Below are positions 9,228 to 64,000 of a stretch of 64,000 nt of DNA, piece after piece. Numbering within the stretch: the first letter of the stretch is position 1; every line of letters begins with the position of its first letter. The position numbers were made by a program, and so were the translations under genes. Source of the stretch: Phoronis australis (Eukaryota > Animalia > Phoronida); NCBI GenBank assembly GCA_002633005.1, contig NMRA01000470.1, positions 124,001 to 188,000 of the forward strand, written 5' to 3'. The notes beneath the pieces are model-generated. The model did not search any database and was not told where the DNA came from. It saw nothing but the letters and a program-made list of their open reading frames with translations.

Positions 9228-9995
9228 ATGGCCGCGCCTTCGTCTAAAGGCAAACCTTTTGACTTTCGGATGTCAAAGAAGGTCGCTGAATTGACGCAAG
9301 TTGTGCATATGCTTTTTACGAGAAACCACGAGAAAGAGGTTGAACTCGATGCCATAAAAGAAGCGTATGAGTTCGAAATTGATGTTGTAATAAAAGACGC
9401 CAGAAGTCGAATAGCCAAACTTGAAGCCCATATCAAAGACCTGGAACAGAACAGGAGCTCCGATGATGTCAAGTTCAAATCTCTTTTTGAGAAACAACGT
9501 AAAGATAATGAAGAGGAATGGAGGAGGCTAATAGAAGGTAAAGACAAAGAGATTCATGAAGGAAGACAAGAGATGCAAAATTTACGTGATCTGTTGATCA
9601 ACGCTCAAAGAGACGTCGAGAAGCTGCGGTCAGGGATGACAGGGGAACTTGGTAAAAGGGAAGACGATCTGCGGAAAAAAGACACTGAGATTGAGAAGTT
9701 ACGCAGAACAGTCGGCAACTTGGAACGGAAGCTGAAGGATGAAACTTTGAACTCAAGCCAGAAAATTACTGATCTGGAGCAGAAATGTGACAGATTGTGC
9801 GATGAGCTAAGCCAGCTGAAGGAAATGTTTGAGGACACGCATAATGTTAAAGAAAGTTTGTTGGCCAAAAATAAACAGTTGGAACACGAATACAAAACTT
9901 TACGGAAGGAGCTGGCAAAGAAAATTCATGACGTTGTCGGAAGCTCAAAGCCGACCACTCCTCCAAAGCTTTTAAGCAGGGAGCAAAATGTAATG
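9228..9995 (+). CDS. FAM184A: FAM184-family coiled-coil protein, coding exon 1 (256 aa)
   Basis: MSKKVAELTQVVHMLFTRNHEKEVELDAIKEAYEFEI matches the FAM184 N-terminal motif (MSKKIAQLTKVIY.LNTKNDEHE) and is followed by heptad coiled coil. Acceptor TTTTCTAG at 9181-9188 lies upstream of the ATG; phase-0 donor ATG|GTAAGA at 9995/9996. The symbol is family-level; orthology was not tested. Confidence 0.8.
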
Positions 9996-10290
9996 GTAAG
10001 AAGCCCCACAATCCTTAACAAAATGTAATGGTAAGAAGCCCCACAATCCTTTACAAAATGTAATGGTAAGAAGCCCCACAATCCTTAACAAAATGTAATG
10101 GTAAGAATCCCCACAATCCTTTACAAAATGTAATTGTAAGAAGTCCCACAATTCTTAACAAAATGTAATGGTAAGCAGCCCCACAATCCTTAACAAAATG
10201 TAATGATAAGAAGCCCCACAATCCTTTACAAAATGTAATGGTAAGAATCCCCACAGTCCTAACAAAAGGTAAGAAGCCCTACAATCCTAA
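9984..10290 (+). repeat. 35-bp minisatellite (8 copies plus 1 degenerate) overlapping the exon 1 donor
   Basis: Unit CAAAATGTAATGGTAAGAAGCCCCACAATCCTTAA starts at 9984, 10019, 10054, 10089, 10124, 10159, 10194 and 10229, with a shortened copy at 10263. Confidence 0.95.
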
Positions 10291-11282
10291 AAGCGGCTAT
10301 AAAACCTCATCCCGTCCAAGAAGCGAACTTGATTTGGACCACGTGGTGCTATGAAGTTGGTCTGATCTTGTTCCTTACTCAGATGCCAAGTGGTTTCTCG
10401 GTTTGCAAAGAACTGAAATTTCGTTATAATAATGATTCCTCAAAACCATACTCGGCGCATTAAATGACACGCCGTGACGAGCCAACTTGTAAAGTTGTAT
10501 CTCAGGCAACAACGAACTATCAATTATTTAAGCCCTAAGGTTACCTTGAAATTGGTTAAGGAACAAATTTAGCCCAATTTAATAATCGTAAGTAGTTTAA
10601 ATCAAGTTAGTTGTTGCGGTGGAAGACGCGTATATAGCCGATTCAGAATAGAGTCGTTTAAGCAATTTCATTGAAATTTTAACTTCAGCGAAAAAAATAT
10701 ATATATTAAGTTCGGTTTCCAGTTTGTTTAAACCTTGCCCTCAGTTAAATTTCCGTTTCTCCACAGTCGTTTATTAGATTTCTTAGCATTTCCATTTCCA
10801 TCCACATCACGGTTTTTGTTGTCCGTACGTATACGGTTTAGGTGCATGCAAAACAAGCATTTATAATGGCATTTTTGTAAATGTAATCTCTCCGGCACAG
10901 GATATTGATTCCTGTAAAGGTGTATTTCAAATACTTTTAAAAATAAACGGAAGCAACTTGTGAAAGGTGCACCTCAGGTACTAATTCCCAAGCTACTATA
11001 CTTGGCCTCATTCTATGCATTTGCGTTATGTCAATAGCAATTTCTTAAATAATTCATTTCAGTACTCCCAATGTTTAATTATCATTCTAGATATGATAAA
11101 TCACTTAGCGAGTAATTGTAAAATCTGCTCAACATGACATACAAACACTTTAACTCCTATGTAGTGCTTGTAGTTTGCATTTGCGCGATAGAGAGCTAAG
11201 AATGCTGGATCGTCTCTCATTAGAAAATGTCAGGGTGTCGCGTCGCAGACAAGTTTAGATACTTTTGGTTTGTACCTTCGTA

Positions 11283-11480: not shown

Positions 11481-11725
11481 CATTGGATTTGATTACCAGT
11501 CGCAGGATTCTTGGTGTCGCCAATGAGTTAAGTGATCTGCTGCAAGTATTCATGATTCCAGACACTATATTTTTTCTATCCCCTTATATTTCAATCTAAA
11601 TTTCTAACAGCCATAGCTTAATATGGAATGGTGCAATTTCAGTGGAGGTTTTGAGTCATGCAGTTTTACATGTTTGTTGATCTCTGGCACTAATTATACA
11701 ACAATTCGTTTTGAATTTGTCGCAG

Positions 11726-12007
11726 GATTACAACGATGAGTTGGAGAGATTGAGGAGGGAGATACACAGGTATAAAATGGAGCTCTCGAACAGAGAAGGC
11801 AACTTTAACAGAACGTTTGCGGACCACAGCAAAGTTGTGGTCGACAGCAGGGCAGGAAAGATTGGTATGCAGCAAATGCAAATCTTAAATCCCCATTCCA
11901 CGTTCCCTAACCCGCAATCTAAAGCAGCGCCGCTGGATTTACAACGAATGCGAGAAAGGACGTTTTCGTACGCAACAAGTCACGTATATGAAAGTGAAAG
12001 TGATCAG
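11726..12007 (+). CDS. FAM184A: FAM184-family protein, coding exon 2 (94 aa)
   Basis: Acceptor TTGTCGCAG| at 11725, phase 0. DYNDELERLRREIHRYKMELSNREGNFNRTF resembles the FAM184 C-terminal 'LEL.NRE.NFN..F' motif. Donor CAG|GTGGGT at 12007/12008. Confidence 0.8.
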
Positions 12008-12331
12008 GTGGGTTGCAGTCACAAGTTAGAAAAGTGTCATTTCGTGCAGACTCTGGTATGGTGCAAATAACACATGTTCTTTGCGTCGCATTTCTGGTTG
12101 ATTCAACGTGTATTTTAATATAACCGGTGCCCGGTTAAGAACGTTACTTACCAATGAAAAACTCAATGTCACGCACCCCTTTCCCATGGTTCTGGATTTG
12201 CAAAAGTTTATCAATGAGAAGTTAAAAAATGGAGATTGAGAATTAAAACATTAGTTTCTATTCTCATGTAAAATTTTGGCGCTCATCAAAATCGTTGGGT
12301 ACATTTTCAAGTAAACTGAACATATTTTCAG

Positions 12332-14382: not shown

Positions 14383-15641
14383 TCATTTCTCGTCTGTCAT
14401 TGAAGCTGCTTCGTCTTCTTCTCCGCAACTAAATAAGTCTTCTTCTGTTTCACTGTCTCTCGAAGTTACTGACCACTCCATTGACTTTATTTCCGCCGGG
14501 TCCTCATAACGGTTAGAAGATCGTGTTGGCATAATTTGGTTTTTCGAAATACTGACAGCCATCCGCTTTCGGATAGGCAGAAGTTCTCTTTGCATCTTTA
14601 CGTCTGCTGGTTCGACAACTTCATTGGTGATTTCGAGTTTGTGTGTTGCCGTAGCATGACACCATTTATAAAACATGTTAGCAGTTTTGCTCACTTTTTT
14701 AACTTCTTCGCTGTTGTACTGTGTTAAAATTTCAAGTGCTCGTGCAGCGATAGATGGATTAAGGTCGTCAATTTTAAAGTTCCCTAGTGATTTGGACAGA
14801 CCCATGTTGCTTTGGCAGAACTGTTTACAGGCTGTCCACTTTTTAGTGTATTGCTCTCGCTCCCCGAGAAGTAGTAAAGTTGCTATCATCGTGTCGTGTA
14901 CCGCTTTCGGCGGATATTGATAAGCCTTGAATTCGGCAATTCGCTTTCGGCTCATCTTCACAAGAGATTCTGTGTAAAGCTGTAGTGTTTTCATCGACTC
15001 CAGTCGGCTGCGAGCTGAATCAAAAAAATCCAAAATCTGAAAAAGCCCCCGCGACTCTGCAAGCTGTAAAATCCCCTCCATTTCTTCTAAGTTCCGAGTG
15101 CGTTCTGCCGTTTCTAAAAGAGGTTTAATTGATAGAGCTAAGACAAGTTTTACAGACAGAGCGATTAAACGTTTATCACCATCGGTCACTCCTTTCTTTC
15201 CCATTCGAGCAGTGCTTTCAAATTCTTTAAGTGTGTTTTGAATTCGTACTCTGTCCATTGATTTGTGAGACTTTAAGAGAGCAACCCTGTTGAGCTCATG
15301 TTTCACAAGAACTAATGACGCCAAAGATGCTGTCTGTTTCTTCAATATTTCTCTTTCAAGAGTTGCGGAAAGTCTCTTGTCTCTCGTGGCTTCGCCAAGT
15401 GTTTCGTCCTCTTCCGTGTACATATGGCCTGGTTCTTCTTGGTCGACATTGCTTGTAGTCGTGCCAGTAAACTGCTTTAGCTTGGTTGAATTCACGAACT
15501 CTTGTATTTTTCTTTGATAGTCAAGTCGATGGTACCAAGCAAAGACTGTCACAAAAGTCAGGAAAAAAACGCTTACCACAATCACGACGACTTTTCGCAG
15601 TTCTTCCTTGTCCACTGGGTTTTGCCATAGATATGTGGATA
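14383..15641 (-). CDS. Terminal exon of a large Ig-superfamily protein: TM helix, helical linker and dynein MTBD-like domain
   Basis: The ORF-track start is a GTG, and the frame stays open up to the acceptor TTTATTACAG| at 15642, which is phase 1 like the upstream Ig exons. TM segment VVVIVVSVFFLTFVTVFAWY (~15591-15532) is followed by basic residues. 14964-14650 reads IAEFKAYQYPPKAVHDTMIATLLLLGE..W..LGNF..YNSEEVKKVSK..FYKW, the dynein stalk-head pattern. Confidence 0.8.
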
Positions 15642-16188
15642 CTGTAATAAATCATACGTGGTGTGATAATTTTACAAAACGATAAACGCAGGTGTGAACT
15701 GAGGTGAGCAAAGTTACTCGCGCTATTTTGTTCGCACGTTTACTTGCTTCCAAGTTTGTGAAATTCCACATTCATGCAATAGAGTTGGGGTGACTAGACT
15801 GGGCACTACGCTATAAGTATATTCCTGAGCAAGGCGGCGGGTCCCTTTTGTCGAAATGGCCGACAATGACTCTTTGGATTGACTGGCAAGCAGACGTCTT
15901 TGTCTATAATCGAAGGAAGAGGAATTGATCACTACTGGCGTAAAATTGAGTTGTTGATGACAGGGGAGGGGGGGGTCAATTTGGTGGCAATCTAGGACAC
16001 TTTGAATTGAGCAGGTGGGGCAAACGCGAGATTTAACTGAGTTTCAACCGGGGTAGGACATTTTTGCGATGAGCACGCTGACCATGATCCCGTTGCTCCT
16101 CCATTTTACAGCTCAAACTGATATGATTCGATTCTCTGTTAAATTAACAATTTCATAATTTCCTTCAAACTAAAATATGTCATGAATG

Positions 16189-17029
16189 CATAGGCGGATT
16201 TTAGGGGGGGGCAGAGGGCCACCCCCCCCCTCTTGGCTGCCGCAAAAAAATAAAACAGCAAGAGCGTAGGGAAATGTTGAGTTTATTAATTTGCCCAAGT
16301 AATTAAAATTGTACGGATGAAAAAAGATTTAAATTTGTGCAGTTTTAGTGTTTGGGGGAGCTCAGATCTAATTTCAAGTGTGTGTCAAATTCGGAACACG
16401 GCGCATTCGTAACGGAACTATGGCTAAGTGTAGGCTCTCCCGCGATATCCCAGGCGACCGGTAGTGGCGCTGCGCACTACGACTCCGTTTCCGTCGTCTG
16501 CTACACTGTGCAATGAAGAAAATTTACTTCATTTTTTAAAGAAAATGGAACCTGAGTGACGATGAAAAAAACAGAAGCTGCTGGTAAGATGTGAATTTTA
16601 ATCTAAGCCTTAGTGAATCACTCAGAAACTCATTAATTCTCTCTTTGTCAAACCTTAACTTAAGACGATATCCAAAGCAATCCCGTCATTATTGCCAACA
16701 CGAAAAACGGATTTGGTCTTTTGGGCATTTGATGACAACTTTAAATACAAAAAATTTGTTAAGAACCGATTGCACAAAATGTAAAACGTGTAATAAGCAT
16801 TACAAAAAGAAGTAAGTTTAGCGCGCAAACGCTGTGGACCATAAACAAGTAGGTCTCTTAATTTTAGGTTAGTTGTGATGTCGTGGTGGTGTAGTGGGAA
16901 AGCACGTGCGTCCTTCCCGACCTCCTCCCATTCGGTGCTAAGCGCATCTACAATCGTGGTTTGCGCAAATTCTTACGGCCGGACAAAATGTTGCCCCCCC
17001 CCCTTTGTGATATCCTAGATCCGCCACTG
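16189..17029. mobile_element. hAT-like MITE with 6-bp TSD (TGAATG)
   Basis: Terminal inverted repeats (TIRs) CATAGGCGGAT...ATCCGCCACTG, with TGAATG at 16183-16188 and 17030-17035. A near-identical inverted copy lies at 48922-49571. Confidence 0.8.
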
Positions 17030-19005
17030 TGAATGTTTTCCATAGTGCTCGATCTAAAGAAATGCCTTTGCATCAGGTTTGCCAACATTCATACAGCTTC
17101 GTTCGGTTTGTCTAGCAGTTCACAAATAGAATTTTCAATTTTTAATCTTTCTTTTCTTAATTTTGATTTGCGAAAGCGTGTTGATTTTACCAAATGCTTA
17201 GTTAGTAAAAGTTTTGAAGATATGGAGTCGTCTGTAACAAATTGGTGACGTTACAGATTGCAGGTTTATCTCGTACTCATTATCCCACATATCATATTAT
17301 GTGAAAATATAGGGAAATAGAGTCAATCCGTATACAACCAGTAGAGGCCGTATTTCACTGTTGGTGTGTGGTCTCCTGATGGAATGAATTCGAGCTAACA
17401 ACGCCAAATTTGATTGGTTCGGTCGTTTGGCTTACTTAATACATTAATCCAAGGGGTCGTTCTCGAAAGAGCAGTTTTAGCGCTCTAAAAATACAAACTT
17501 TCTCCAAAGACAATTCCGACGCACTGTGATCAGGCGGCTATTTTTAGACCTCTCAAGTTTCAGGCCCGTAGCCCGGGGGTTCGACTCGCTGGTTCCCTGC
17601 GTGCCGCTAGGTAGCCAGTAGCCAGCACGCAGGTGTCACTTGATTTTCCTCGGGAATTTTTTTACACCGGCGTTTCTGATTGGCTAGTCGAATTCTCAAC
17701 AGGCAGCGCTTTACGCAAACAAACTGGCATGACTGATGGACTGAAGTGTAAATGTGGTCTGTTGTACAGACAAATCGGTGCTTAAAATTTGTGTTCAGGA
17801 AATGTGAATCCTAGAAATTATGATTGCGCCTTTTCGGATTGCATCTTTCTACTGTCGATGACTTTGTTTACGACACTGTCCTGTATTCAGACAGTATGAA
17901 TAACACACCGGTTAAATCGGCCAGATGTGTGTTTATTGTACATGTATGTGCTTCAAGCACGCGGCTATTAAACACTCATGCAGAAACGAAAAATTTGCTG
18001 CGACGCCACTTGCGTGACAAGGCTAAAAATCGTTCACAGTCTGCCATTTGTTTACGGTGTTGTAAAGCTAACCAATGACTGCTGAGGTTACATCAATCAA
18101 TGCTAAAGCGCGTGCCACTGCGTGATACCTGTGTGCTGGTTAAGCACGCTAGGGAACGTGCACTTAAACATCCAAACATATACTTTGAAAAATCGAGAAA
18201 GTTTGTAAAAGGGAAGCTTTGTGGAGCGTATTACTTCACTGGAATTTTAAATTCAATAAAAAACTTTGCGAATGCCGAACTATATTTTTCCAGAGACCTT
18301 CTCTGGTAAGCGCTAACGGAGACAACTGTGGCTCTAGTTCTCTTTTTTGCGAAATTGTATATCACTTGAGAAAAAGTGATGACCTGACGGATAACATCAA
18401 TTGCTGGGCATTTCCTGATTTTTGAGAATATAGATCTTTTTATATTTAGAGGTCCCGCCCTTGAAGGAGGCCATTGGTGACATTTAAGTTGCCACCCTTT
18501 TCCTGTTTTATTGACAAATTCTTCAGGGCCACTCCTGTTTTTTTGTGAAATCGTGCAACCGCATTTCATGTTGAGGAAGGTCCCTTTTTGCAGGGTCACA
18601 CGACGATGGAATTAACTGTTACTCTTTCCAAGCTTAGCTATGTTTGTTTAGCTGTTCATCTTAAGGTTAATTACATCAGTATTTGACCATTACGATCAAA
18701 AAAGGGACAAATGCCGCACTAATAAAAAAGCTTGTTTATGTTGATTTGACGTTTTGTCTATTTATTAGACATCACCAGGTTAATAAGACATCAACGGCTG
18801 ATTTCACAAAGGTGGTTTAACAAAATCATGTTTAAGGCTTAACCTAGTCTAATTTTAGACCTAACTTGCATTTCACCAATTTGGTTTAACAGTCTGAAAG
18901 CCTGGTTCTGTTAGACCAGGCAGCAGGTTTAGTAAAACCCAGGTTTAAAGTATCCAAGCCACCCTACTGTGTCAATCCAGATTAACCCAACAAAGAAACT
19001 ATTGA

Positions 19006-21691
19006 CACCCCGGCCAACCCGCGATCGAGAACGCCCGGAAGGCGATCGAGAACGAGACCTTACACCAAAAATTGCAGACGAAAGTACCCGGTGAGTTTAA
19101 GTGTCATTTTCTTCTTAAATAGAGGCTACTTTGGTACCAATGCAACACACCGAAAAGCGTCAGAGCTTAGCCTTTGTTGTGAATCTGAAATAATACTTGG
19201 TTTTTGCTATTTTTTGAAACAGAGACCGCAAAATGCAATGACTTTCGGTAAAATGACTTGCGTCTCGTAAATTCGTCTATTTCTACTTGTTATTAGCAAT
19301 TCCTGGGTTCTTTAGTGGACACGTGTGACGTTTATAGTTAAATCGTCCCTGGTGACGCCTTTGTTAGTTATAATTTGTGAAGCAATTCGAGCTATCTACC
19401 GATACAAGCAGGTCCTTGTGTGAGACGGCGATCGGGAACGAAGCTGTTAATTCTCCATGGCGATCGTGAACGCAAAAATGCGATCGTGAAAGCACATTTT
19501 TTCTGTGTATTTTCCTGAATAATTGTTCAAGTTACGGTGTTATATCAAGAATTTTAGACTAATGTTATACTTTCACCGTTTTTTTATGATTTCTGTGTGA
19601 GATTTAGCCTCACAAATATGATTTAATGCGTTTGATTTTTCAGTTGAACTGTAGCCGCATGAGGAGTCCTTCAGAGTGTTAACATACACGCCTTCAAAAA
19701 AGAGTACCGGTAGCACAACTACTGCATGTGACAAAGGGCTGTGTATGCATATATGTTGTGGAGCTTCGTTCAGGAAGAAACCTTTTTTGTCCGAAATAGA
19801 TTGTCTATGATTCAGTGATGATTTAGTTTAATACACTCCAAAAATAATTCGCAGGAAATGTACACTGGATGTGTTATGTTGATTTCCCTAAAGCAATGTT
19901 TTATATCTTATTTCTGTATGACCAATTTTGAGGTATGTGTGATAAACGATTAATAGTATTATAGAATTGCTTTAATATTGTTGTTGATTTCCTGTGTAAT
20001 CACTACATTGTCTTGAAGTGATGTTAAAGACAACATTTTAACTACGTTTTTGAAAAATCACAATATAGTAGGTGTATTATATCTCGCCTCACTCTTTTTC
20101 AATGTCACGTTAAACTGGAGATCATGAACCGAAGATGCACTCAGGACCAATACTACAAAACAGAAGAGTCAAACATATGTTGTATATCCAAGCCACACAA
20201 GTGCCACAAGTCAATCTGTTCATCTCTGTATCGATAATATCAGTAAATATCCAACAAAATATTACCCGTTTTATCAGCAAAACAGTTAACGCCATTTATG
20301 GGATTTTTTTTAATCCCAGACGTTCATGAGCGGTAATCTTGGAATCACCTCACGAATGGTGTTGCCGCATTCTTCTCGCTCCGCACAGGCACGCTCATCA
20401 CCATTCGTTAATTTCACAGGCGTATTTGTTTTTTTTTCGTTTTGCTGTCACAATCTTGTAAGAAGATTCGGCACTCGCTTTCCAGGGGCGGATCCAGGAT
20501 TTCGAGTTGGGGGGCAGGGTACAGGAATAGTCAGAATTTTGCCACATGCGCGCCCAGCCTAAAATGTAGGGATGCAGGGGCCTCGAATTTTTGGGTTTGT
20601 GGACCTTATTACTAAGAAAAGTACACGGGGTTTGTTCAAGGCCTATGAATTGCGCATTAACCCCTCGAGCCCACTTCGGTGCGTGCAGATGCTAGTCGGC
20701 AATTCACACCCCGGACTGCCAAATGATATCTGGGAGAATTTTAGGGGGCATGGTCACCCCCCTCCTAAATTTGCCACTGCTTTCATCTGCATCAACAATT
20801 TGTTTACTCCTGGCTTACACGCTACAAGGAACAATTGCTGGATGAGTCTTAGTTTAGAACCCCTTGTTCCACTTGGTTTCGTCTAAAAGTATATGTCTGT
20901 ATTTCAAAACCCTGGTAGGGTGTACTTTCACGCCCTGATTAATCTGTTCGTTGAAGCTCGACTCACAATAATAACAATGAACGTGTTTCCTGAAATGAAA
21001 ATAAATTCATTTGTGAAAATATCTATAATTAAAATAGGGCTTGATGAACATGTAGTCGCTCATTTTAATTTAATGGTAATGCTATGATATTGTTTAGTTT
21101 GGAAACGAAAGTAACAGTAATGACTCAAAATGTGATTAATTCATTGCACCACACTTATTTTGTAACCTTTTCACGTTTTATATGTAAAAATTTCATAACT
21201 GTTCGGCACACCACGATGCGTTCTCGATCGCATAAACAAACAAAAATCTGCTTTTCCGATCGCTTATCTTTGCGTTCTCGATCGCATCTTTCAACAGAAA
21301 AGTGTCGAAAAATCAGAGATCCTGACAAATCTACGAAAAAAGCGTTGTGTTATATTTTCACAAGTCACTTCTTCATAACTTCATGGTCAATTTATTGATT
21401 TAGTGTCAAAAATAACCGCAATTTGCCAAAATGATATACGAATCACCTTTGACTCAAGCGATGCCTCGTTCAACGTAACTTATCTCCAATAACTGGAACA
21501 GACACCAGCCCAAACCTCTACCTGCCCTTCCTCAATGTGTTACGCCTTGAACTCATGTCTCTGTTTTCACATTGGAAGTAAAAGCAACGTAAATTTATCA
21601 AATTCAATCACCTTGCCTGGCTTCGCTGCTCGCAACAGGTTTCTTTCTCGATCGCTTTCCGGTCGTTCTCGATCGCGGGTTGGCCGCGGTG
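19006..21691. mobile_element. 2.7-kb non-autonomous TIR element with CAC...GTG ends and 6-bp TSD (TATTGA)
   Basis: CACCCCGGCCAACCCGCGATCGAGAACG at the left end pairs with CGTTCTCGATCGCGGGTTGGCCGCGGTG at the right. TATTGA at 19000-19005 and 21692-21697. Repeated subterminal CGATCG(A/T)GAA motifs occur on both arms. Confidence 0.85.
20483..20779. mobile_element. hAT-like MITE with 5-bp TSD (CTTTC), nested in the CAC element
   Basis: Ends CAGGGGCGGAT and ATTTGCCACTG, with CTTTC at 20478-20482 and 20780-20784. Confidence 0.7.
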
Positions 21692-23127
21692 TATTGAAGT
21701 GCTTCAATGAAACCTTGATCACGTGGGTACGTAATGGCACTCAGCTGTGCAGACATTTGCAGAAAAAGGTCTTAAAGCTTTTCTCAGGGGAAAAATGTTC
21801 CCTCTCTTGACTGATCAGAGAAAAAGCCAATGTTATAGAGAATAAGAAAACTGGTGCCAAATCAAGTCAACATAAGCAGCAGACTTGGAGAGATACTGGT
21901 TCTGACTGGCTGCACAGTTGCCACAATCGGAGAAATGCATGGACAAACAGTTAAAGGGTGTCACTAAAAAAATAAAGGCCAGAAAGAAAATTTCATCAGT
22001 GAAAAAATTGCAAAGATAAACGGTGAGGGACCCAGTGGCAGATCTAGGGGACATTTTTCATTTTGTTATGTCTGTGTCCAACACACACGAAAGTACTTGC
22101 TCACGATTAGCCGCAACATATCAAATTTTATTTCGTGTCATTTTACTGTTTATTGCAGTCAAAGGGGGGGGGTGAGCAGGACCCCTGCCCGACAACCTTA
22201 ATTCGGGGACCAGTTGAGGTGGAACTCGGTCAGAAGAATCAGAAGATGCCGTCTGCATTCAAACCCGTAGCGCTTACGGCGATGATGCTCTACTCGACCA
22301 GTCGTATTCTGAGGAATCCGGAGGATACCCTGCAACACGCACTGGTCTACGTAGAGGCGGACCCAGGGAGGGCAAGGAGTCTGGACCCCTTTTTTCCCTT
22401 GATTTTAGTGATATCAAATCCATAATTTTCAATTTGTTGACCCAGATTCCCCTCTTTTAAAAATCCTTGATCCGACCCCTCTTTAAGAAATCCTGGATCC
22501 GTCTCACGTTTGATCTTGTGTAATCGTAACACTGAATATTGAAAATAGTCCGCTCTCGTAAATGCACACCACGGCATGATTCAGTTGAACCTATATCTTG
22601 CAAGTCTGTCATACTTAACAGTATTGAACTTGAGCTTGACCAAGTCTACTGAAGTTAAACTTGGTTTAAGATGTTATACAGGTCTAAGGAATGTAGGCCT
22701 GTATTGGTGAAATGCAAACTGACTTAGACCAGGTCTAGGCTGGAGTTAAACCAGGTTTTACTAGACCACTTGTCTAAAAGTTAAACCAACTTTATGAAAT
22801 GCAGATTATCTTTAAACCTGGTCTAAGTCCAGTTTTAACCAGGTTTAACTTTAAACCACCTTTATTATTTTATGAAATTGGCTTCAAGTGTCAACATACC
22901 AGTCAGGTTACTTCCATGTAGTGAAATGAGTGTAGCAAGAAATACAGGGAATAGTAAATTGGTCATCAAACAGAAAATGGCTGTGTTTAACTGCGACCGT
23001 GAGTAACTTACGTAATTGAGCAGTTTCTTTTCCACCGATTCTTCAATCAACTGTTCTTCTGTTCCACGAGGAATGAAAACAAATTATCGGAACCGATTCC
23101 ATTTCGTTACAAGTTTTCAGTATTTCA

Positions 23128-24186
23128 GTACCAACAAACCGAATTTCAGAACAACTTTTGTTGCTGTGAAGATGTTGAGAGATGTTCCAAAATTTTAGGT
23201 AATGGTGCGCGTCACGAGAGCACTGTTTCGTAAACGACGAAACACTGTTTTTATATTATTTTAGAAATATCCATTAGTTTCCTATGTGTGTGGTGTAACC
23301 TATAGGTAGCAGATTTGTGTAGGTGTAAGGTCGAAACAAGCGATGAGTATATGCCTTCAATACACTGTACTTACGTTGCTGAAAGTAGTCGCAAGGTATC
23401 ATCTCACTACACGACTTAAAGTTTCTTTCTGGTCCTGGGCAGTACTTTCCTCCATTCGAGGACGGCCGCGGATTAGAGCAAGTACGATATCGTAGATGAG
23501 AGGCTAGTCCACACGAACTGCTACAGTGTCCCCATTCCTGCCATGGAGACCACCTGCCATGAACTGATAACGGGAGTGTTTGTTAGTGGAAACACAATAT
23601 CACATGTAAGTCACATCGCACTTCACACCCACAGCGTCACGTATGTGCAATATAAANGTACCAACAAACCGAATTTCAGAACAACTTTTGTTGCTGTGAA
23701 GATGTTGAGAGATGTTCCAAAATTTTAGGGAATGGTGCGCGTCACGAGCGCACTGTTTCGTAAACGACGAAACACTGTTTTTATATTATTTTAGAAATAT
23801 CCATTAGTTTCCTATGTGTGTGGTGTAACCTATAGGTAGCAGATTTGTGTAGGTGTAAGGTCGAAACAAGCGATGAGTATATGCCTTCAATACACTGTAC
23901 TTACGTTGCTGAAAGTAGTCGCAAGGTATCATCTCACTACACGACTTAAAGTTTCTTTCTGGTCCTGGGCAGTACTTTCCTCCATTCGAGGACGGCCGCG
24001 GATTAGAGCAAGTACGATATCGTAGATGAGAGGCTAGTCCACATGAACTGCTACAGTGTCCCCATTCCTGCCATGGAGACCACCTGCCATGAACTGATAA
24101 CGGGAGTGTTTGTTAGTGGAAACACAATATCACATGTAAGTCACATCGCACTTCACACCCACAGCGTCACGTATGTGCAATATAAA
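23128..24186. repeat. 529-bp tandem duplication separated by a single N (probable contig-overlap artefact)
   Basis: 23128-23656 and 23658-24186 are identical apart from the 3 substitutions I could see, and are joined by an N at 23657. Confidence 0.9.
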
Positions 24187-25273
24187 AGCATAGTAGACAT
24201 TTATAAACCCAGGAGTGATATTTTTACAACCACATCCTGATCTTCTCAAATAGTTTAGATTCTAATTGTACTTATGGTAAATAAATCTCCACGATTATCT
24301 TCGAAACCGAATTTCCAACATCGCCTAGCTTAGTTTTGTGACTTAGCAACAGGTAACAAAAGCGGGTGCTCATTTATGACGAAAGCCTACTTGAGTCAAG
24401 CTGTATTAAGAATTCTGTCTTGGACGAAATGGCGGGTTATTGACATTTTAGAAGCTGTCTATGACTTTCATTTCTCATTATGAGTATTTTGGGAACGATG
24501 ATATTTACAAGTGCGATCCCATTTTAAGATTCTTAAACTAAAATCTGCAAACCGGTCACGAAGTAGACTGCAAAGAGAAAAGGTTTTGTCTAAGAGTAGT
24601 CATACGTTGGGTCAAAACAATTACAAGTACAATTACCTTTACGCACATCGATGTCAACAATATATGTACGTCATTAAATGATAATTTTACGGATCTTGGA
24701 GTTCAATCATTAATTAACTCTCATTAAGGTATAATCATTAAATTTAAAATACTCGTGGTATTTGTCACGTTCGGAGTTCTTCATTTCCATGTTATAGTTG
24801 GCGGAATCTACTCATCAAAAGGTTTTCGCTCGCATTGTCTGATTCGTATTTTCTTCAGACAGTGCCTCATAATTCAGCTGTGTTAGCGACGTAACAGACA
24901 ACACCGGTGCAATTATTTAAAATTTCTAAACGGTTACTCAATGGGTTGTTTATGATACATTTTCACTTATAAGCTCATTTTTAATTATCTATATTAACCA
25001 CGCTCGCAAACAACTAATAGTGCACAAGTATCACTTTAAAAATCCACTCGGCTGTCGAACGTGCATCCATAATTTTTCTCATTATTTAATATCCAAAATA
25101 CAAAAAGGGACGATAATGGTAATTAAACAGTCAGCATTAGAACTTTCAAAAAACATTTAGATAGTTTCCCAAGGTTTCTGTGTCACTTCGTAGGATGCAG
25201 TACTCGGAACGTCAACTTCGTCATGTTCTCAATGTACATGTAAGAGGTGCGGCGTCCACATTTACTAGCGGCT

Positions 25274-25530
25274 CACACGCGCACCCAGGGGGCTCGGGGG
25301 GCTCGAACGAGCCCCCCCCCCTCCCATTTGGCGAAGTGGGCAAAAAGGTAAGCATCTGAGAAACAAAAAGTCCGAGAGAATGAGACAAAAGTCCACTAAA
25401 CAAGCACAAAAGCGCAATTCACAGTGGTGCCCCCTTTCTTTTTTTTTTAGTCCGCCCGCTTTATTGTTATCAAAAGGTCGACAACGTCAGGAATTCGAGC
25501 CCCCTATGTTAGAGGCTGGGTGCGCACGTG
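25274..25530. mobile_element. hAT-like MITE
   Basis: TIRs CACACGCGCACCCAG / CTGGGTGCGCACGTG, with an internal GGGGGCTCGAACGAGCCCCC palindrome. Flanks are CGGCT / CTGCT (5 bp, one mismatch). Confidence 0.6.
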
Positions 25531-26620
25531 CTGCTCCTGCCAAGTTAACCCATTGTGCTGTGAATTTTGCAATGGAGCAACCTGACTGTCTAACATTACA
25601 AGCGAAACAAAAATACACTGCACACTAAGTCGGTCTACAGAAGAGGCACGCGTGTTAACTGAGCGGGATGTTCATACATTTGATGGACACCGATATCCTT
25701 CAGTCTTATATATTTTAATAAAGTGATTAGAATTAATGGACCAGCACACTAGCCTAAAGTACGCCGAAAGTTGCACCCAGGGTCACAGCAAAAGTGTCGG
25801 CATACATTTGGTAAGTGCAATGCTTTTCATTGCGAAAATTGTTGTCAACATACATGCGTCACCAATTTCAAAAGGCACGTTTTGCATGTACGCGATATAG
25901 TAGGCAATTTCTCGGACAAAACATTCAATACGTGAGCGAAATTTTCTCCCAAATTAGTGCACAGAAATTATCCCATTATTCTTTTGGTGGAGAAGGCATG
26001 TGTGCGAATGTGGGGTGAAGTTTTCGCTAATAATTGACGTTTCGCCAAGTGTGTACCAACTTTTAGTCCTGCAGCTGAGCCTGCATTTCACCATGTTGAA
26101 CTGGCTAAAACACTGAAACTGGACTCGTAGTATTTCTTACCGGGAAAGCATTCTATTTTCGCTAGGGTCAAGAACATCGAAAATATGAGAAGGCGCTTCA
26201 CAATTTATTGGGTTTGCGAAATCTATAATTACGAATTAAAAAATGGCAAATGTACTTATTGCCTGTGAGAATCCAAGATCCGATGAACATGGTATTGTTT
26301 TGAAGACCAAATGCGCCAGAATACTCTTATGAAAGCTCAAGAGCAGCAAAATGCAACTTCAAACGTTACTTTTGCGATGTCTGGAAACCAAGAATAACTA
26401 ATGTTTTATTTAAAAATTTAACATCGTGCACTCAAATTGTTCTACAAAAAGGTGTTTTATTTGAAGCAAAAAAGCTATGGGATGAAAAGTAGACAATCTG
26501 GAGTGTGAAAGTATCAGTTTGTCTCGATTTTTGGCATGTTTTAATCACATTGATAGTGAAATTTGGTTTTGTCTTCAACTTCTCTCTTGTCACATTTCAA
26601 CCATATTAACTTAGTCTTAC

Positions 26621-26944
26621 CAACAACTTTGAGTTTGGCAGCTATCGCAGTCGACATGAAAGGGTGACGAGTGTTCCTTGCGGCGCAGACAAACACTTCA
26701 TCTTCGTGTTGGAGGACCCTAACGAATGACAAATGAAGTGCAATTGTCGTGACGCCATTAGCTTCGCTTGTGATCACATCAGAAGACGCATTGATCAGGT
26801 TGGACGAGAAGTTGGCAGTTGCCATGGGATTGACTGTTGCTACGCAGCGGATGACTGCGGTGGAGCCATTGTTAACGACCACTGTGTTACCTACGATTTC
26901 GGTTAGCGTGTCAGCTCCTTCCAGTTTCATGTCAAAGGGGCCAG
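26621..26944 (-). CDS. Ig-like domain exon 14 (membrane-proximal), phase 1-1
   Basis: Acceptor TTCGCAG|CT GGC CCC; donor GTT G|GTAAGA; 324 nt. Reads GPFDMKL..VIRCVATVNP..FVCAARN..KLKVV. Confidence 0.85.
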
Positions 26945-28699: not shown

Positions 28700-29939
28700 A
28701 CTAGAAAGATTATTGTCACGGCGTGACAATAACGGACTCTGCGCGTGCATATTACTGGAATTATGGGAAGTTACTGACAGCAACCCGTTTACCAATATGA
28801 AAAGGAATTCTTTAAAATTGTAGGAGAAATTACATATTAATTTTTTGATGACCTTCCCACTAATTGACCTCTTCCGGTGCATTATGAGCCCCAATGAGGA
28901 AGTAATTGTTAACTCCATTAAAAGTGTGGTTAATGCTAATAATCACAGATGTTTTACTTTAAGCACTTCAGAATACAAGATGAATGAAGTGGTCAAACTT
29001 TCAGAAGAAAAATGTACCTAATGACCCCATGGGTGCACCAAATGACCTGAAAATTTAGAATTCAAACTCAATCGCACTTAGTAAACAGATACGTAATTCT
29101 GAAGTCTCTAGCTCAAAATTTTAGTTTGTACTCAATGACCTTTGACCTATTTTTTCTGATTGGTTAGGCCTATTGCAAAGTAAAGTAGGGTATTCAATTG
29201 GCATGTTGACTTACACCAGTGTGCTGAAATTTAAAGAATTCCTTGAAAAACGTAAGAGATATAACATTTTGAAAGTTACATGACCTTTGCACTAATTGAC
29301 CTTATCCGGTGCATTTTAAGCATCTTGAGGAGAATTATTGCAAAGCCTATGGAAAATGTGTTTAACGCTGAGAATCACAGTTGTCTAACGGTTGACACAT
29401 CAGAATATTTGCTGATTGAAAAGGTCAAATTTTCAGAAGAAAAATGCACCTAATGACCCCATGTTTGCACTAAATGACCTGAAACTTTAGATTCCGATTT
29501 AATTTACCTGTGGCAATCAGACCTGTCAATTTGAAGTGTCTAGCTCAAAATTTTAGTTTGCACCTAATGACCTTTGACCTATTTCACCTGATTGGATGAC
29601 CCGATGACTTAGAAAAGTTATTTTTAAATTGTCATGTTGACTTATACCTGTGCACCGAATTTGAAAAAGATAGCTTTAGGAGGAGTAGCATTTTGAAAAT
29701 TATATGACCTTTGCACCAGATGACCTCTTCCGGTGCAATATGGAATATGATTATGTAACCAATCAAAATTTATATACCGTCAAATGTTATATTCTGAATT
29801 TAAAGACTGTACCTGCACCCAATTTGGAGTTATTAAGCCTCAAAGTTGGTCGGAAGAAGAATAAGAAGAATAAGAATAAGAATAAAATTGAAGAAAACCC
29901 AGGAACAACAGTACTCTGCGCTTACACGCGCAGAGTAAT
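28700..29939 (+). mobile_element. Helentron-associated (DINE-1/HINE-like) non-autonomous element
   Basis: 5' ACTAGA followed by the hairpin TTATTGTCACGGCGTGACAATAA. A ~430-bp TGACCT-rich internal tandem unit starts at ~28848, 29281 and 29706. An (AAGAAT)n microsatellite lies at ~29853-29884. The 3' hairpin TACTCTGCGC-TTACAC-GCGCAGAGTA matches the subterminal ACTCTGCGCG near the 5' end. Confidence 0.75.
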
Positions 29940-32367: not shown

Positions 32368-32724
32368 CTGTTACGTCCAGCGACATGGTTTCTGTTGCCA
32401 CCAACTCAGCATTTTTGTTATTTTTGGCCACGCAAACAAGATTGCCGCCGTGATAAAGAAATGTCACAAGCACGGACGCCGTAGCTTCGTTTTTATTTTC
32501 ATTTTTGATGGTGACCAGATCGAATGTCTTAAAGTCGGCAATATCTCCGCGACGCGACACGACATTTATGAATATATCTGAACCTTTGTTGGCCACTCCG
32601 GATGTACACGTGACGTTAAGTAGTGTGTCGTTGGTTATCACTATTGTTTCGCTGGCGTTTGGTTTGTACTCGTAACTTCCAGCGAGTGTCATGTCTACTG
32701 TCCACGGGCCGCGCGGAGCACCGT
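32368..32724 (-). CDS. Ig-like domain exon 13, phase 1-1
   Basis: Acceptor TTTACAG|AC; donor ACA G|GTATAT; 357 nt. Reads GAPRGPWTV..LNVTCTSG..LVCVAKN..SLDVT. Confidence 0.8.
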
Positions 32725-32907: not shown

Positions 32908-33240
32908 CTTTGACCTCGACACTTATTGACGTCCATGCTTTATTAGATTTGGCCAAGCTGTTTGTTGCGTTGCACCTTACGAAACTTAAGTCATAGTCTC
33001 GTTCCATTATTATGGTAAAAACACCTATTCGCGAGAGACCAATTTGGTCTTGACTCTTCTCATTGAATATTTCGACGTGTCCGTCTTTCTTGATCACTTC
33101 TAACGAGAACAAAACTGGCTGCAATACTTTATCTGTGATGCACCGGAAGGTAATCTTTTCGGCCAGAGTAGTTAAACATGCGTTCCCACGACCACGGCGT
33201 CCCCCAAGACAATAGAGAGCTGTTATTGCAGTCGGACCCA
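32908..33240 (-). CDS. Ig-like domain exon 12, phase 1-1
   Basis: Acceptor TTTCAG|TG GGT CCG; donor AAA G|GTGCAC (weak); 333 nt. Reads GPTAIT..ITFRCITD..VRCNATN..SVEVK. Confidence 0.8.
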
Positions 33241-37700: not shown

Positions 37701-38015
37701 ATGCAGCCCTGAGTTCAAACTCAGATTCCACAGGGACGATGGCAGGATCAGAATTTTTGGCTACGCACTTGACGAAGGTCTGGTCGTCATTTCTGTTGAC
37801 TACAAATTGAAGTGTAGAATTCACAGCAAACCCAGTCAGCTGTCCACTTTTCAATGCGTACACCGAAGAATCGAATGTCTTGTTAGTCAATGTCGGATGC
37901 GACCACGAAACGGAGGCATTTGGAAACATAATGTCTGACGCGCAAAGCAGCCTCACTTCGTCTCCCTCGGCAGGATAGTGTGCAGATGACGTCACAGTGA
38001 CCGTGTCAGGTCCGA
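37701..38015 (-). CDS. Ig-like domain exon 9 (C2/CD80-like), phase 1-1
   Basis: Acceptor ATTTCAG|TC GGA CCT; donor GCA T|GTATGT; 315 nt. Reads EGDEVRLLCASD.FPNASVSW..STLQF..DD..VKCVAKN. Confidence 0.9.
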
Positions 38016-48921: not shown

Positions 48922-49571
48922 CAGTGGCGGATCTCGGATATCACAAGGGGGGCCCAACATTTTGTCCGGCTGTAAGCCTTTGCGCAAACTGAACCACGAT
49001 TGTAGATGCGCATAGCACCGAATGGGGGGAGGTCGGGAGGGGGTTTGCCCTGGCGGATAGAGCGCGCGTACGTTACCACTACACCACCGCGATTTAACTA
49101 CTAATGTCCTCCTAAGAGACCTACTTGTTTATGGTCCACAGCGTTTGCGCGCGAAACCTACTTCTCTTTGTAATGCTTATTACACGTTTTATATTTTGTG
49201 CCATCAATTCTTAACAAATTTGTCATATTTAGAATAATCTTCAAATGCCCAAAAGACCAAATCCGTTTTTTCGTGTTGGCAATAATGACGGGATTGCTTT
49301 GGAAATCGTCTTTAGATAAGGTTTGACAAAGAGAGTATTGCGAGTTTCTGAGTGATTCACTAAGGCTTCGATTAAAATTTGCATCTTACCAGCAGCTTCT
49401 GTTTTTTCATCGTCACTCAGGTTCCATTCTCTTTAAAAAACGAAGTAAATTTTCTTCATTGCACAGTGGAGCAGTCGACGGAAACGGAGTCGTAGTGTGC
49501 AGAGCTACTGCCGGTCGCCTGGGATATCGCGGGAGAGCCTATACTTAGCCATAGTTCCGTTACGAATGCGC
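48922..49571 (-). mobile_element. Second copy of the 16189-17029 hAT-like MITE, inverted and truncated at an N
   Basis: CAGTGGCGGATCTCGGATATCACAAGGGGGG followed by ~600 bp of reverse-complement similarity to 16400-17029. Ends at the N near 49573. Confidence 0.85.
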
Positions 49572-49899: not shown

Positions 49900-50229
49900 C
49901 TTCCACTACAATATTGACAGTTTGATGGGCATGCAAAGTGGCCGAGTCCTTATTAAGAGCACGACAAGTGACTTCAATGGGTGACTCTCTGGCGTCCGCG
50001 ACAATTGTGAGAGAAGATTTGAAAATATATTTCGGCTGATTCCTTGGAACTTCTTCGACAGTAGTCAGCCCTTCGGTCTTAATCTTGACATCACAATACC
50101 ACATGAAGAATGCATACTGATAGACGTGGTCCGTTTGGCACGTTATTGTCAATGACTGCCTATCTTTGACATGTACTTCGTTGTCTCCTTTCCGTGCTGG
50201 TGTAAACATCTTCACCTTTTTCGGGCCGG
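49900..50229 (-). CDS. Ig-like domain exon 5, phase 1-1
   Basis: Acceptor TTTCTCAG|CC GGC CCG; donor GAA G|GTAAGT; 330 nt. Reads LTITCQTD..FMW..SSLTI..VTCRALN..NIVVE. Confidence 0.9.
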
Positions 50230-58513: not shown

Positions 58514-58849
58514 CTACAAATCACGAAAGTGAGACCTATTTGCCAAAATCGCTGAATTTTTAAGATTTTGGAAGCTGGAATTTTTGACATTTTTCCTACA
58601 CTTTTTGAATGATACAAATAAATACATCAAAAGCGATGGACGACTATCAAAAAACTGGGTTAAACGTGCGATAAACCAGCGCCTACTGGTGAAAAAGTCG
58701 ATTTACTTACCCTTAAAAAGTCAGCCTCACCTTGTTCCCTAACCTGATTGCGCGTACGAAGAGATGACAGTTCAGTATTATTGTTCTTCAGATCAGTCTC
58801 CTTATCACGGCACATTGGTAGGCCATTGATCTTAAGCAATATTAAAACC

Positions 58850-59885
58850 ACTTCGAAGTCACTATTCGCACAGGCATCTTTAATCAGCCCCTTGACGATA
58901 TACGACAATGAGGATAATGGTATTCAACTGCTTTACAATAGGGCCGCCCGTCAGACGCTTCAATCTCTATCTCTAGCTCTGTTGAAGCACTCCACATTCA
59001 AAGTCGAAGATTCTGAAGTGGCGCACAACACAAAGCATATCAAATCTGGGATTAATTGAAAACACATATTTTATCGGCAACTGCAACACATTTACTAGTT
59101 ACATTTGCTGACATCGAAACCAATAAATATCATAAAAACTTCCAGACTTTCCTAAATTCAATCGGCAATGTTCACGGCAAAGCGCAGTTCCCGAGATGAT
59201 TTATTGGTGTCAACTAATGCTCGCAAGGCCGCTCGCAATATCAGCAGAACGCTTACATCAACTAAAAACAGCGACAGCAGAAACAGCGTAAACGGGGAGG
59301 CGCTTGACGGATCATGCCGAGTTGACCAGAGTTCGGCCTCGTGTGATGAGGTCAAAAACCATGGTTGGCATTGCCTCTGTAATTCGACCATTTAGTTAAC
59401 AAAATCATATACTTGTGTTTCTGTGTTTGTACCTAATTTAGGAGGAACGGGACGAATTTCGAAAGCCCTTAGAAATGTTGACTTATTTTTATTGTACCCA
59501 ATCAGTGTGCTCCTGGAGAGGTATAAAGGATACTGTTACTGTTTTTAATTGGTTTGAGCGTTCTGAAGATGTTTTTAGCAGTCTTAGTTGACACCAGTGA
59601 ATCGTCACGGACTCTAGGCTTTGCTGTAAATGTCGCCGATTGATATCGGAAAATCTGGCGGTATTGCATGTATGATTTTCATTGGTTTCGATGTCAACAA
59701 ATGTAACCAGTGAACGTGTTGCAGTAGCAGATGTAATGTGTGACTTAAATTATTCCAAAATTTGACATGCTTAGAGTTATTCCGGAAGTGTCTGACAGGC
59801 AGCCACATTGGAAAGCATACTTTTCTCTTTGTTATAGTATATCTTCGAGGGGCTGATTAAAGGTGTCTGTGCTATTCGTGACGAA
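58850..59885. repeat. Diverged inverted duplication (58850-59215 vs 59585-59885)
   Basis: The reverse complement of the left arm (TTAGTTGACACCAATAAATC.., ATTGGTTTCGATGTCAGCAAATGTAAC, AGGGGCTGATTAAAG) matches the right arm (TTAGTTGACACCAGTGAATC.., ATTGGTTTCGATGTCAACAAATGTAAC, AGGGGCTGATTAAAG). Confidence 0.8.
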
Positions 59886-59982
59886 ACGTGATCACTTCCC
59901 AGTGAATAGTTTCTGAAGCACATATCTCTGTATTGGTTACTTGGCATAATAATTGACCTACTAAAACGCATGCACAGTATAC

Positions 59983-62410
59983 CATTGTCATTGTCATTGT
60001 CTCAGGGACAGATATCACTGCACATTGGACAGGTCCACAAGTGCTAAGTCCTTCTCTGCAGTAGCCAAAAAAGAGTCACACTGCTGATGGTTCCCATGTT
60101 GAGCTGGTTAATCCGGTATCTACTTTATCCACGTAACGTGGTTCTGATGTCGCTTCCTCTGACAAAATGAAGCTCAGTTAGTCTGTCCAGTGTGGTGCTT
60201 TCTGAGAGAGCCTCCATCTCCTGGTCTTTCAGTGCCATCAAAACATCCTTTTCGCTCCAAGTGACATCTTCCAAAAGTTCTGCCTTTCCTGCCAGGTCAT
60301 CTGCTCTTTCATTCCCCGTCACTCCAGCATGTCCAGGGGTAAACAACCACACCAGGTGTTTCAGCCTGCTTCCTTCTATTGCTTCCTTCCATTCTGGTTT
60401 AATGAAACCACTCTTGATTTTGTTAAGCATGCTCTGCGAGTCCGTAGCAATGACTGCCCCTGTGTAGCGGGTGGTACGGAGCCATCCTAGAGCTGCTGTG
60501 GCTGCCTGCTCGTCCATCCGTATGCTGGTGGTCATCAAGTATGCACCTCTTTGCTCTGCAACACATCGAGCTCTCACGCGTGCTGTGAATCCCCAGCCAG
60601 ATTTGACACCCCTGACGCCTGACCCATCTGTGAAGATAATGGCATCCGATAGTTTGCTGTTCTCTTCAATAAGTACACAGACCTCAGTGTTCACAACTAC
60701 TCCACTGCGTTCTCGGCATTCCCGTCGCAGTGTGATGAAAACCTTTGTGCAATTAGCCAATGTGTCCCTAATAGGTTTCCACTCTTTGTCTCTCCTTATG
60801 CTCCCAGTCTTGCACACCGAAGCAACCGTATCCTCCGCTTGAGCCGTCCAAGATCGTCCGCGTTTGATTCGGCTACCCTTATCTATTCCTATTTCTTTGT
60901 ACAGAAGGTGGTCTTTGTCAGATGCCACTCAGAAGAGTGCCTTGACTTGAGCATGCTTGTGTCGGTGTGTGATGCTTGGTAATCCAAGAACATGGCGCAT
61001 TGCATCAGTTGATGTGTTTCTAGTGCAGACCGAGACTACCCTCATGCCTTCATTCTGAATTTTTTTAATTTTGGATAGCTGGGTCTGTGACATAGTTGTT
61101 ATCCCAAAGCCATAGTCTATGGCAGCCAACACAAGAGCCTTAAATAACAGCAACAGTAATCGTTTTTCCATTTTAGCTTTTGCCATCGTCTTCAGAGCCG
61201 AGAGTCCTTTTGCACACCTTTTGACAAAGCTATCTGCATGCTCCTTGAAGCTCAAAGTGCGATCCAAGGCTATGCCCAGGTATTTGAGCGTGTGAGTTCT
61301 TTTAATAGTGGAGCCTTCTATTTCGACGGCTGGCATTACTTTGCTAATCACTTGTTGAGAGAGCACCACATCGCAGCTGCTTTGGCATTAATCACTGATC
61401 CAGTGTCTTCACACCATGTTGACACATCTTTGAGGTGTGTGCTGATGCCTTCGGCCATTCTGATGTGGTCTGTCCCATGTGCATATACAGGCGCGTCATC
61501 TGGAAATGTGAGAATCCTCCCGTGTTCAATATTGATTGTATAGTACCGGGGACAAAGATGATCCTTGTGGAAGTCGAGGATTCAGTCTCATAGGGTCAGA
61601 GAGCCACGACCCCAACCTCAGTGCCGCTGTACGTTCCATCAATGCAGCGGCTATCCAGTTGATGATGTAATGGTTGACCTAACAATCTAAATGCAGATTC
61701 ACCAACTTCTCGTAAGATACACGATTATATGCGTCCTCGAGGTCAATCGCCACAGCCGGAGTATCTTCCTTCCTTTGGAATGCTTCATATACATCATACG
61801 AAAAAATGGCCACATTGGCCCATGTGACTTTCCCGGTCCTGTAGCTTCCAAGAGTTTGTGGAAGTAGCTTCCTATTCTTCAGGTCCCATGCGAGTTCTCG
61901 GGCCACAATGCGCTCCATAAGTTTGCCAATTGTATTTTGCATTATTATTCTATAGCCATTCAGCAGGCTTAGGAAGCACAGCCAAGAAGCTGTGTAGCCA
62001 ATCCTCGGGAATTATACCTTTCTCCAAGCTTTCTTGGTACAAAGCGGCCAGCTCTTCAAGTTCTGCATCATCAAGTTCTCGGATCGCGTCATAGTCCACT
62101 CTATCTGGTTCTGGGGATGTGTTTTTCATTGTCTTCAGGGTGCTGCGAAGATATTCTACCGTAATAGTGAACGGCACCTCGTCAGTCGAAGCAAGCTCAG
62201 TGAGTACCGCTTTTGTGCTCTTGCGCTGCTCCAAATTTCTCTGATCTGTTTGATCAATGTACCTTTCCAAAAAGTCATTCATTTGCTTTCATCAGTCACT
62301 AGAACTGTTCCATTCTCAGCTTCCACGTTTCCGAAGTTTGTGGAATCACTCTGCCTGTTCATGCTCTTATGTAACTTCCAGAATTTGATCAGTGCCCTCA
62401 GTGTGTTAAA
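59983..62410 (-). mobile_element. 5'-truncated non-LTR retrotransposon with RT and RNase H (I-group/Ingi-like), inactivated
   Basis: RT motifs MQNTIGKLMERIV, AIDLEDAYNRV, PQGSSLSP, FPDD and LKYLG. RNase H motifs IFTDGS, E, ATDSQS and PGHAGVTGNERADDLA. C-terminal H..TCP. 3' (GACAAT)n tail at ~59983-60001. Contains stops and frameshifts. Confidence 0.9.
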
Positions 62411-62628
62411 TAGGCAGACCACTAATATAAAGCAATGTAAAATTTAAGGAAAATGAAGGTTTGTCTAGTATTAGTGAGTGCGTGGTAGAATGATTCGTCG
62501 TTGGACGTTTAACGCAAATTATAGTGATCACAAGAGAATAAATCAACAAACCCAAGACCTTGGAGTGTATAGGGTCAATTATTTATTTTTCTTCATGTCA
62601 ATTGGGTGTCATGGGTCACGGAAACAAG

Positions 62629-63995
62629 TTAAAGGAGAATGCCACCCGATTTACTTAGTCTTTTTTACCGTCTTAATCGGTCTATATCCACATCGCCTCT
62701 TATAAGGTCGATCTCACCTTGCCGAGAGGTGTCGCGTTAACCTGTGAGGAAGGTGAGAAGCGACGCAGCGACGTCAGTGGTTCGTCTGCAGAGTGAATGC
62801 CGGTTCCCGCTTGTCCGAGCTATGAAGCTGCGAAGAAAGCGGATACATTGTTTTTTCAACTTCCTCGAGAGCCCGAAATGCTTAGGAAGTGGCTCGCGGT
62901 AATGAAGAATGAAAGGTACGCTGTTAATAGCAAGTATGAGGCCGTGAAACATCTCCGTGTCTGTGGCTGGCATTTCGTAGAGAGTGATTTCTCTGACGAA
63001 TTCCGGCTTTCCAAAGAACTATCCATACGTTCCGTTGCCTATGCATGTTCACGGCGCCTCTCTAGTATTTCTTGATTAGTGTACACCGGTTCGAACTGAT
63101 AGCGAGTGAAACCTAACGATCCAACCCGTGAAGTCTTCGTCGGATGAGCTCTTGACTAAGTCGGGATTGGCGCCGGGCGAGTTGCCATGTAGACGTTTAT
63201 TATTCTGTGTTCTGTTTCAAAATGAATTTTTGTCATCCTAAAGTGATCCTAACCAATGCTTATATGAAACTAAAACAAAGTCTGTCTCATTAGATAAAAT
63301 TTGTAATGCCTTGGAGTGCTCGTGAGTGCAAATGTTTTGAGAATGCAGCAATGAATAAACCACTGCGAAGCCGTGTGAGCGCATGCTAATTCAGTGTTTG
63401 CTGACAGATAGCTGTTATGAAACAATTACTCGATTTTATATGCTACTGTCACATGTTAGGGGAATCTTTATTTAGAAATACAACTACATTATTCAAATCC
63501 TTGATACTGTACAACCTTTGCCCTGACGGTCTGTGGAAGGGGAACCCGACTTCGCGGCCCCCGACAAGTACAGATTTTCAATTTCGTGGCTAATTCACAT
63601 AAATAATTACGTGCACATTATTTTTTTGGCTCCCTATTATAGTCTTTTCGTGACTGGAGGTTTAGTTTCCAACTCAAGCTGGTTTATGTTCGTGCCAGTC
63701 CCGGCGGCCGCGATGGGCCTGATCGGGTTCCGAGCCACTGGCCGGGATAACAAGCGTTTTATGTGTTTAGAACTCAAAAAATCACAAGTATAAACAACAC
63801 AGATCTAGGTTCTCTTGTCTGCATTTCATTGAAGAATACTTTGAATTTATCTCCGAACAGACCCCAAACTCCTGCTACGGACCTTGGTAAATTGGCCTGC
63901 CGAACTTTGCCAGGCTACGGTGTGTCCAAATACCAGTAAATCCGTAACAGCGAAATAAAACAACGCGTTTTTATAAGAACTCGGTGTATTTTTAA
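62629..63995 (+). mobile_element. Kolobok-like DNA transposon carrying a THAP-domain ORF relic (62797-63075)
   Basis: TTAA-AGGAGAATGCC terminus. MPVPAC..FFQLPREPEMLRKW..LRVCGWHFVESDF is a THAP-like C2CH finger missing its first Cys. The right end is uncertain. Confidence 0.55.
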
Positions 63996-64000
63996 GGGTT

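Follow-up and report, generated by a model that had tools for sequence, protein, structure and literature searches.

The question raised by this locus is what a dynein-type microtubule-binding domain (MTBD) is doing in a gene that encodes no motor. The locus lies in a 64,000-nucleotide stretch of the phoronid Phoronis australis (contig NMRA01000470.1, positions 124,001–188,000 of the forward strand), called the window below, in which the MTBD-like residues sit inside a minus-strand open frame at 14383–15651. A sequence-only reading had described them as a stand-alone dynein-stalk MTBD-like fold without a motor. We propose that this MTBD is the predicted cytoplasmic tail of a single-pass receptor with immunoglobulin-like (Ig) and TSP1 domains, and we find it somewhat likely that the receptor passively tethers the cell surface to microtubules.

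The homology to dynein is shown by profile comparison, and the fold is well supported by the predicted model. A profile search matched dynein MTBDs with E 1.4e-17, and in the model helices H1 to H6 lie between two helices equivalent to CC1 and CC2, which is the dynein MTBD arrangement in the structural comparison. The sequence-only reading thus proved right about the fold, and the structural and profile checks that it had suggested both returned dynein MTBDs. With the single sequence, the Pfam score for the dynein MTBD family is 15.6 bits against a cut-off of 24 bits, and MT and a domain of unknown function are the only Pfam matches of the exon at E<=1. The likeness had been drawn to cytoplasmic dynein in particular; the homology to the MTBD stands, while the nearest dyneins in a single-sequence search are axonemal.

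The last coding exon (14383–15641, minus strand as for all features of this gene) encodes a membrane helix, a linker, a bundle, the MTBD, an acidic tail and the stop; its acceptor at 15641 is seen in 11 junction reads, and stranded RNA of runs X1 and X2 covers it. Residues are numbered on its translation P0001, with window position 15615 as residue 1. The predicted transmembrane helix (residues 9–27, 15535–15591; Kyte-Doolittle 2.73 over 19 residues) is the sole one in P0001. It is followed by a four-helix hairpin bundle (residues 101–188, 15052–15315), which replaces the long stalk, by the CC1-equivalent helix (residues 197–219, 14959–15027), which in model and alignments is without the proline of the aligned dyneins, and by the MTBD core of H1 to H6 (residues 223–308, 14692–14949), delimited by the model helices and by structural and profile matches. 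The CC2-equivalent helix (residues 310–331, 14623–14688; model and structural match) and a short motif with a PA..Q-E-hydrophobic pattern (residues 335–347, 14575–14613) come next. As the sequence-only reading had held, there is neither an AAA+ ring nor a long stalk, since the exon runs from membrane helix to stop and what lies upstream is TSP1 and Ig.

The domain does not stand alone. Junction reads, Pfam matches and hydropathy show Ig ectodomain exons spliced to the single membrane helix, and joining 16 exons of the minus-strand gene yields an uninterrupted reading frame of 2,003 residues, in which the membrane helix lies at residue 1,602. The receptor is therefore at least about 2,000 residues long with its MTBD behind the membrane helix, and its topology would be type I. 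Four RNA runs (X1–X4) were compared, with junction reads counted at 98% likeness in X1 and X2; this comparison spans the window up to 33500, and the exons above are sequence predictions. RNA over the last exon lies on one strand only (depth 14.3 in X1 and 13.4 in X2), and X3 and X4 give no cover there. Three splice joints were found in X1 and X2, all canonical, and the last three exons are directly seen to be transcribed and spliced. The TSP1 exon (23375–23563; Pfam TSP_1 E 6.8e-12) is linked to the last exon by joint 15641–23375 (4+1 reads) and to the membrane-proximal Ig-like exon 14 (26621–26944; Ig_3 E 0.006) by joint 23563–26621 (8+7 reads). A second TSP1 exon copy (23905–24093), differing by 1 base, has its own joint 15641–23905 (5+1 reads). 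No listed X1 or X2 joint links the two copies, so there is one TSP1 per transcript, and the second copy is an assembly duplicate or a recent tandem copy. The 530-base tandem duplication that carries it spans 23128–24186.

Fourteen upstream exons, all phase 1 and about 290–360 bases each, are Ig-like: both Ig cysteines align in every one, 13 have a Gly-Pro start, and for eight Pfam reports an Ig-type domain at E<=0.05, with three scores beyond the curated cut-off. Next to exon 14, exon 13 (32368–32724) has an end that matches seven loose read ends behind 26947, and exon 12 (32908–33240) has stranded RNA cover. Predicted exons follow at 38015–37701 (C2-set_2 E 2e-5), 35769–35443 and 34548–34213 (exons 9–11), at 50229–49900, about 45806–45519, 43605–43285 and 41547–41203 (exons 5–8), and at 58513–58181, 57843–57511, 56749–56447 and 55445–55125 (exons 1–4 of the window). 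The gene start was not found, and 58514–64000 was searched for Ig-like exons only. Could the MTBD be an artefact, either a leftover of a dynein pseudogene or a faulty assembly join beside an unrelated Ig gene? The duplication of the TSP1 exon in the assembly would fit such an origin, but junction reads connect the exons, and the nearest relatives of the domain are KY-like modules (best match E 1.8e-42) and not dyneins (1e-4, in a much smaller library). We regard this explanation as largely refuted and very improbable.

We searched 1.84 billion representatives and obtained 265 matches at E<=1e-3, mostly over residues 140–325, of which 150 are listed. These are non-dyneins of up to 2,303 residues that usually carry the module, bundle plus MTBD, at the protein end. 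Chiefly the longer ones, 85 distinct matches, were scanned with Pfam at 1e-6 and 5e-4. Ig-like_KY was present in 41, often with a transglutaminase-like core, and the other domains were CLCA-like (two), VWA (one more) and leucine-rich repeat (LRR; one); no AAA, TSP1 or classical Ig matched at these thresholds. Species names were obtained for 23 of 30 matches looked up: 22 are invertebrates (ctenophore, flatworm, annelids, molluscs, brachiopod, amphioxus and tunicates) and one is a Cyanophora protein; vertebrates, arthropods and nematodes are absent from this small set. The three best Atlas clusters have no Pfam family in common, and where the source is known it is mostly a mollusc. Hence the relation to dynein holds as homology, while the notion of a one-off dynein fragment gives way to membership in a widespread invertebrate module. 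Available parts of the literature on hillarin, kyphoscoliosis peptidase, the dynein MTBD, PF12777 and the radial-spoke protein RSP2 contain no account of module or receptor; an 'MTBD-like' motif in the TTLL11 literature concerns, in the parts available, TTLL6/7 and not dynein.

The receptor has the module signature, a hairpin and then an MTBD with invariant E, PP, LLG, W, S and W. In a quick, unrooted tree of 153 domains and 129 columns, which was built without dynein rows and so does not point to a donor dynein, its MTBD falls within a 31-row clade (SH-aLRT 97) that includes 11 KY-like rows but not one of the nine membrane rows, and a PA..Q-like pattern lies behind the MTBD in 10 of the 11 clade members printed. 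Because the receptor sits in this KY-containing clade and shares its motif, the sequences suggest that a KY-type donor contributed the module in a fusion of its own; the immediate source was probably a KY/hillarin-like gene and not a dynein gene. The same data bear on the possibility that the tail is a relic, acquired through exon shuffling or retroposition in a single lineage and now only a folded cytoplasmic cap. Its MTBD sits on a long branch, the whole module and the membrane helix are encoded in a single exon, and the family hairpin unit profile alone does not score the receptor at 8 bits. No orthologous receptor was found among the 1.84 billion representatives or, as weaker evidence, by word-index search in the size range 719–2050 aa; such searches likewise gave nothing at 1051–3000 aa and one already-known match at 68–1050 aa, which is also weak evidence. 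The frame is nevertheless intact, all invariant core residues are kept, the four read variants in the folded part are all synonymous, and two of three raw-read RNA runs show expression, which makes a relic rather improbable.

Several relatives carry the module in other settings. A strong membrane helix (Kyte-Doolittle >=2.5) precedes it in nine of the 150 listed matches, including one protein of Pleurobrachia and, in Branchiostoma, CLCA-like and CD20-like proteins. P0038, P0057, P0099 (from Pleurobrachia) and P0136 make up another receptor-like class that has the module: single-pass, with Cys-rich ectodomains or N-termini, two to five hairpin repeats and a terminal MTBD. P0076 is an LRR protein with the module, whose precomputed annotation PF27087 was not returned by the local Pfam scan. 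Nine matches are a separate type with two to four tandem MTBDs and no motor (P0095, P0104, P0105, P0107, P0119, P0122, P0137, P0147 and P0149), of which P0107, from Cyanophora, adds NPHP3-like TPRs.

The tubulin-contact positions of the tail were compared with those of yeast dynein. In the available passages of one study (PMC7042235), the tubulin contacts of yeast dynein are K3117, E3122 and R3124 in H1, R3152 and R3159 in H3 and R3201 in H6, mutation of the basic ones cuts affinity more than twofold, and Dictyostelium dynein relies on mid-H3 basic residues instead. Profile mapping places R223, E228, K230, T261, Q268 and K307 of the receptor at the six positions, so that four are retained (all three in H1, neither in H3, the one in H6); two axonemal dyneins of the same alignments have the same four. 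The receptor has K264 at mid-H3, and its MTBD has a net charge of +8 versus a family mean of +2.4. The family at large points the other way: with domains gapped at contact positions excluded, its 130 full domains average 2.67 contacts, 21 reach at least four, and the H6 position is acidic more often than basic. The tandem-MTBD proteins retain more contacts than the animal module, their 23 domains averaging 3.74.

Such figures bring in the main rival, in which the fold was re-purposed as a protein-interaction domain and the tail recruits a non-tubulin partner such as an adaptor, a light chain or another family member. The H3 and H6 contacts are lost family-wide, a new conserved basic patch has arisen around H4 (profile positions 111, 116 and 117, 64–81% K/R), the fold occurs in radial-spoke structures, and one dynein MTBD has itself been solved in complex with the light chain LC1 (6l4p). 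The receptor copy, however, is without most of the H4 patch and carries dynein-like H1 and H6 charges instead; for this protein we rate the rival as unlikely, while giving it appreciable weight.

In a passive tether, the long Ig ectodomain would bind a neighbouring cell or the matrix, H1 and H6 would dock in the tubulin intradimer groove in dynein-like fashion, and clustering of receptors in the membrane could offset weak single-domain affinity. The helical bundle would keep the short CC1 and CC2 helices in one register, and we propose that there is therefore no ATP-driven release. In dynein, as described in the available passages of PMC6629372, H2–H6 are rigid and movement of CC1 and H1 switches affinity. 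A fixed register, hence a fixed affinity as the sequence-only reading had considered, is plausible for the receptor MTBD, because CC1 has lost the proline that the aligned dyneins share and the bundle stands ahead of CC1. The predicted model does not tell the high- from the low-affinity state: its root-mean-square deviation (rmsd) to the yeast low- and high-affinity states is 2.4 and 4.0 Å with one aligner and 2.1 and 2.6 Å with the other, and the microtubule-bound 6rzb fits at 2.2 Å.

In general, adhesion receptors are linked to microtubules through adaptors or motors. If the tether is real, a receptor that carries a folded dynein-type binding domain of its own would connect adhesion to microtubules directly. 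More tentatively, and at slightly less than an even chance, we put forward a hitherto undescribed invertebrate class of membrane proteins that would grip microtubules directly via a co-opted dynein foot, coupling adhesion to them without adaptor or motor. The module would have moved several times onto different membrane proteins (the Ig/TSP1 receptor, single-pass proteins of ctenophores, amphioxus CLCA-like and CD20-like proteins), with the hairpin bundle setting affinity. The control of affinity by register becomes testable in this natural MTBD, which has no stalk and carries a bundle where dynein has the sliding coiled coil. For many invertebrate KY/hillarin-like, CLCA-like and tunicate repeat proteins, the family provides an initial hint at the function of their unannotated C-terminal module.

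The window is gene-sparse and its genes are spliced; these genes and the relatives of the module suggest animal DNA. Plus-strand coiled-coil exons at 9228–10028 and 11711–12070 (weak FAM184 match, E 0.002) converge on the receptor gene, the end of the first being overlapped by a 35-base tandem repeat at about 9914–10295. Upstream of the first Ig exon found, 60125–62288 (minus strand) holds broken retrotransposon-like frames with RNase H (E 1e-10) and reverse-transcriptase-like pieces. A dispersed repeat of about 520 bases lies in two introns in opposite orientation (16401–16919 and 49054–49571, 84–95% alike); many RNA reads of both strands fit the former copy. RNA depth is high over three copies of an intronic repeat of about 430 bases (28821–29742) and peaks in X3, a run without receptor expression.

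How does this protein compare with known systems? With the dynein stalk tip (middle of PF12777; 5ayh, 3err, 6rzb, 6kjn/6kjo, 8i3j) it shares the six-helix fold between two short antiparallel helices, at an rmsd of 2.2–2.5 Å and 15–19% identity; in contrast to dynein, it has no AAA ring, long coiled coil or CC1 proline, and a bundle and a membrane helix precede its MTBD. Invertebrate KY/hillarin-like proteins (PF01841 and PF23265) have the same C-terminal module, which carries no Pfam name, and the motif behind the MTBD. Unlike the receptor, they are without a predicted membrane helix (one marginal score each in two of 41), and neither Transglut_core nor Ig-like_KY matched in the last exon or the 15 upstream exons scanned. 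Motor-less MTBD-fold chains also came up in a structural search of solved structures, at 8–16% identity: 7jtk_C and 7jrj_I from the Chlamydomonas radial spoke, putatively RSP2, 9fqr_Xl from the bovine sperm axoneme, possibly EFCAB5, 9e5c_2e from the T. brucei axoneme, and 9ya2_L from Toxoplasma (ICMT-1), likely ICMAP2 by size and range, a protein reported to lie between protofilaments. These belong to microtubule-based machines, unlike the receptor tail, and the available passages of two source papers do not mention the MTBD likeness. The motor-less fold thus has precedent, and its placement in an Ig/TSP1 receptor tail is without precedent within the literature and databases searched.

Among receptors, UNC5 proteins are built as Ig-Ig-TSP1-TSP1 and a transmembrane segment with cytoplasmic ZU5, UPA and death domains, and nephrin/Sns-type receptors have C2-set arrays. 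Neither ZU5, UPA or death domains nor fibronectin-III gave a Pfam match in the receptor exons scanned. As in UNC5, Ig repeats are followed by a membrane-proximal TSP1 (UNC5B match E 5.4e-14), and as in nephrin/Sns-type arrays the Ig exons give CD80-like C2-set matches; what sets the Phoronis receptor apart from both is the combination of at least 14 Ig-like domains, one TSP1 and a tail of bundle and MTBD.
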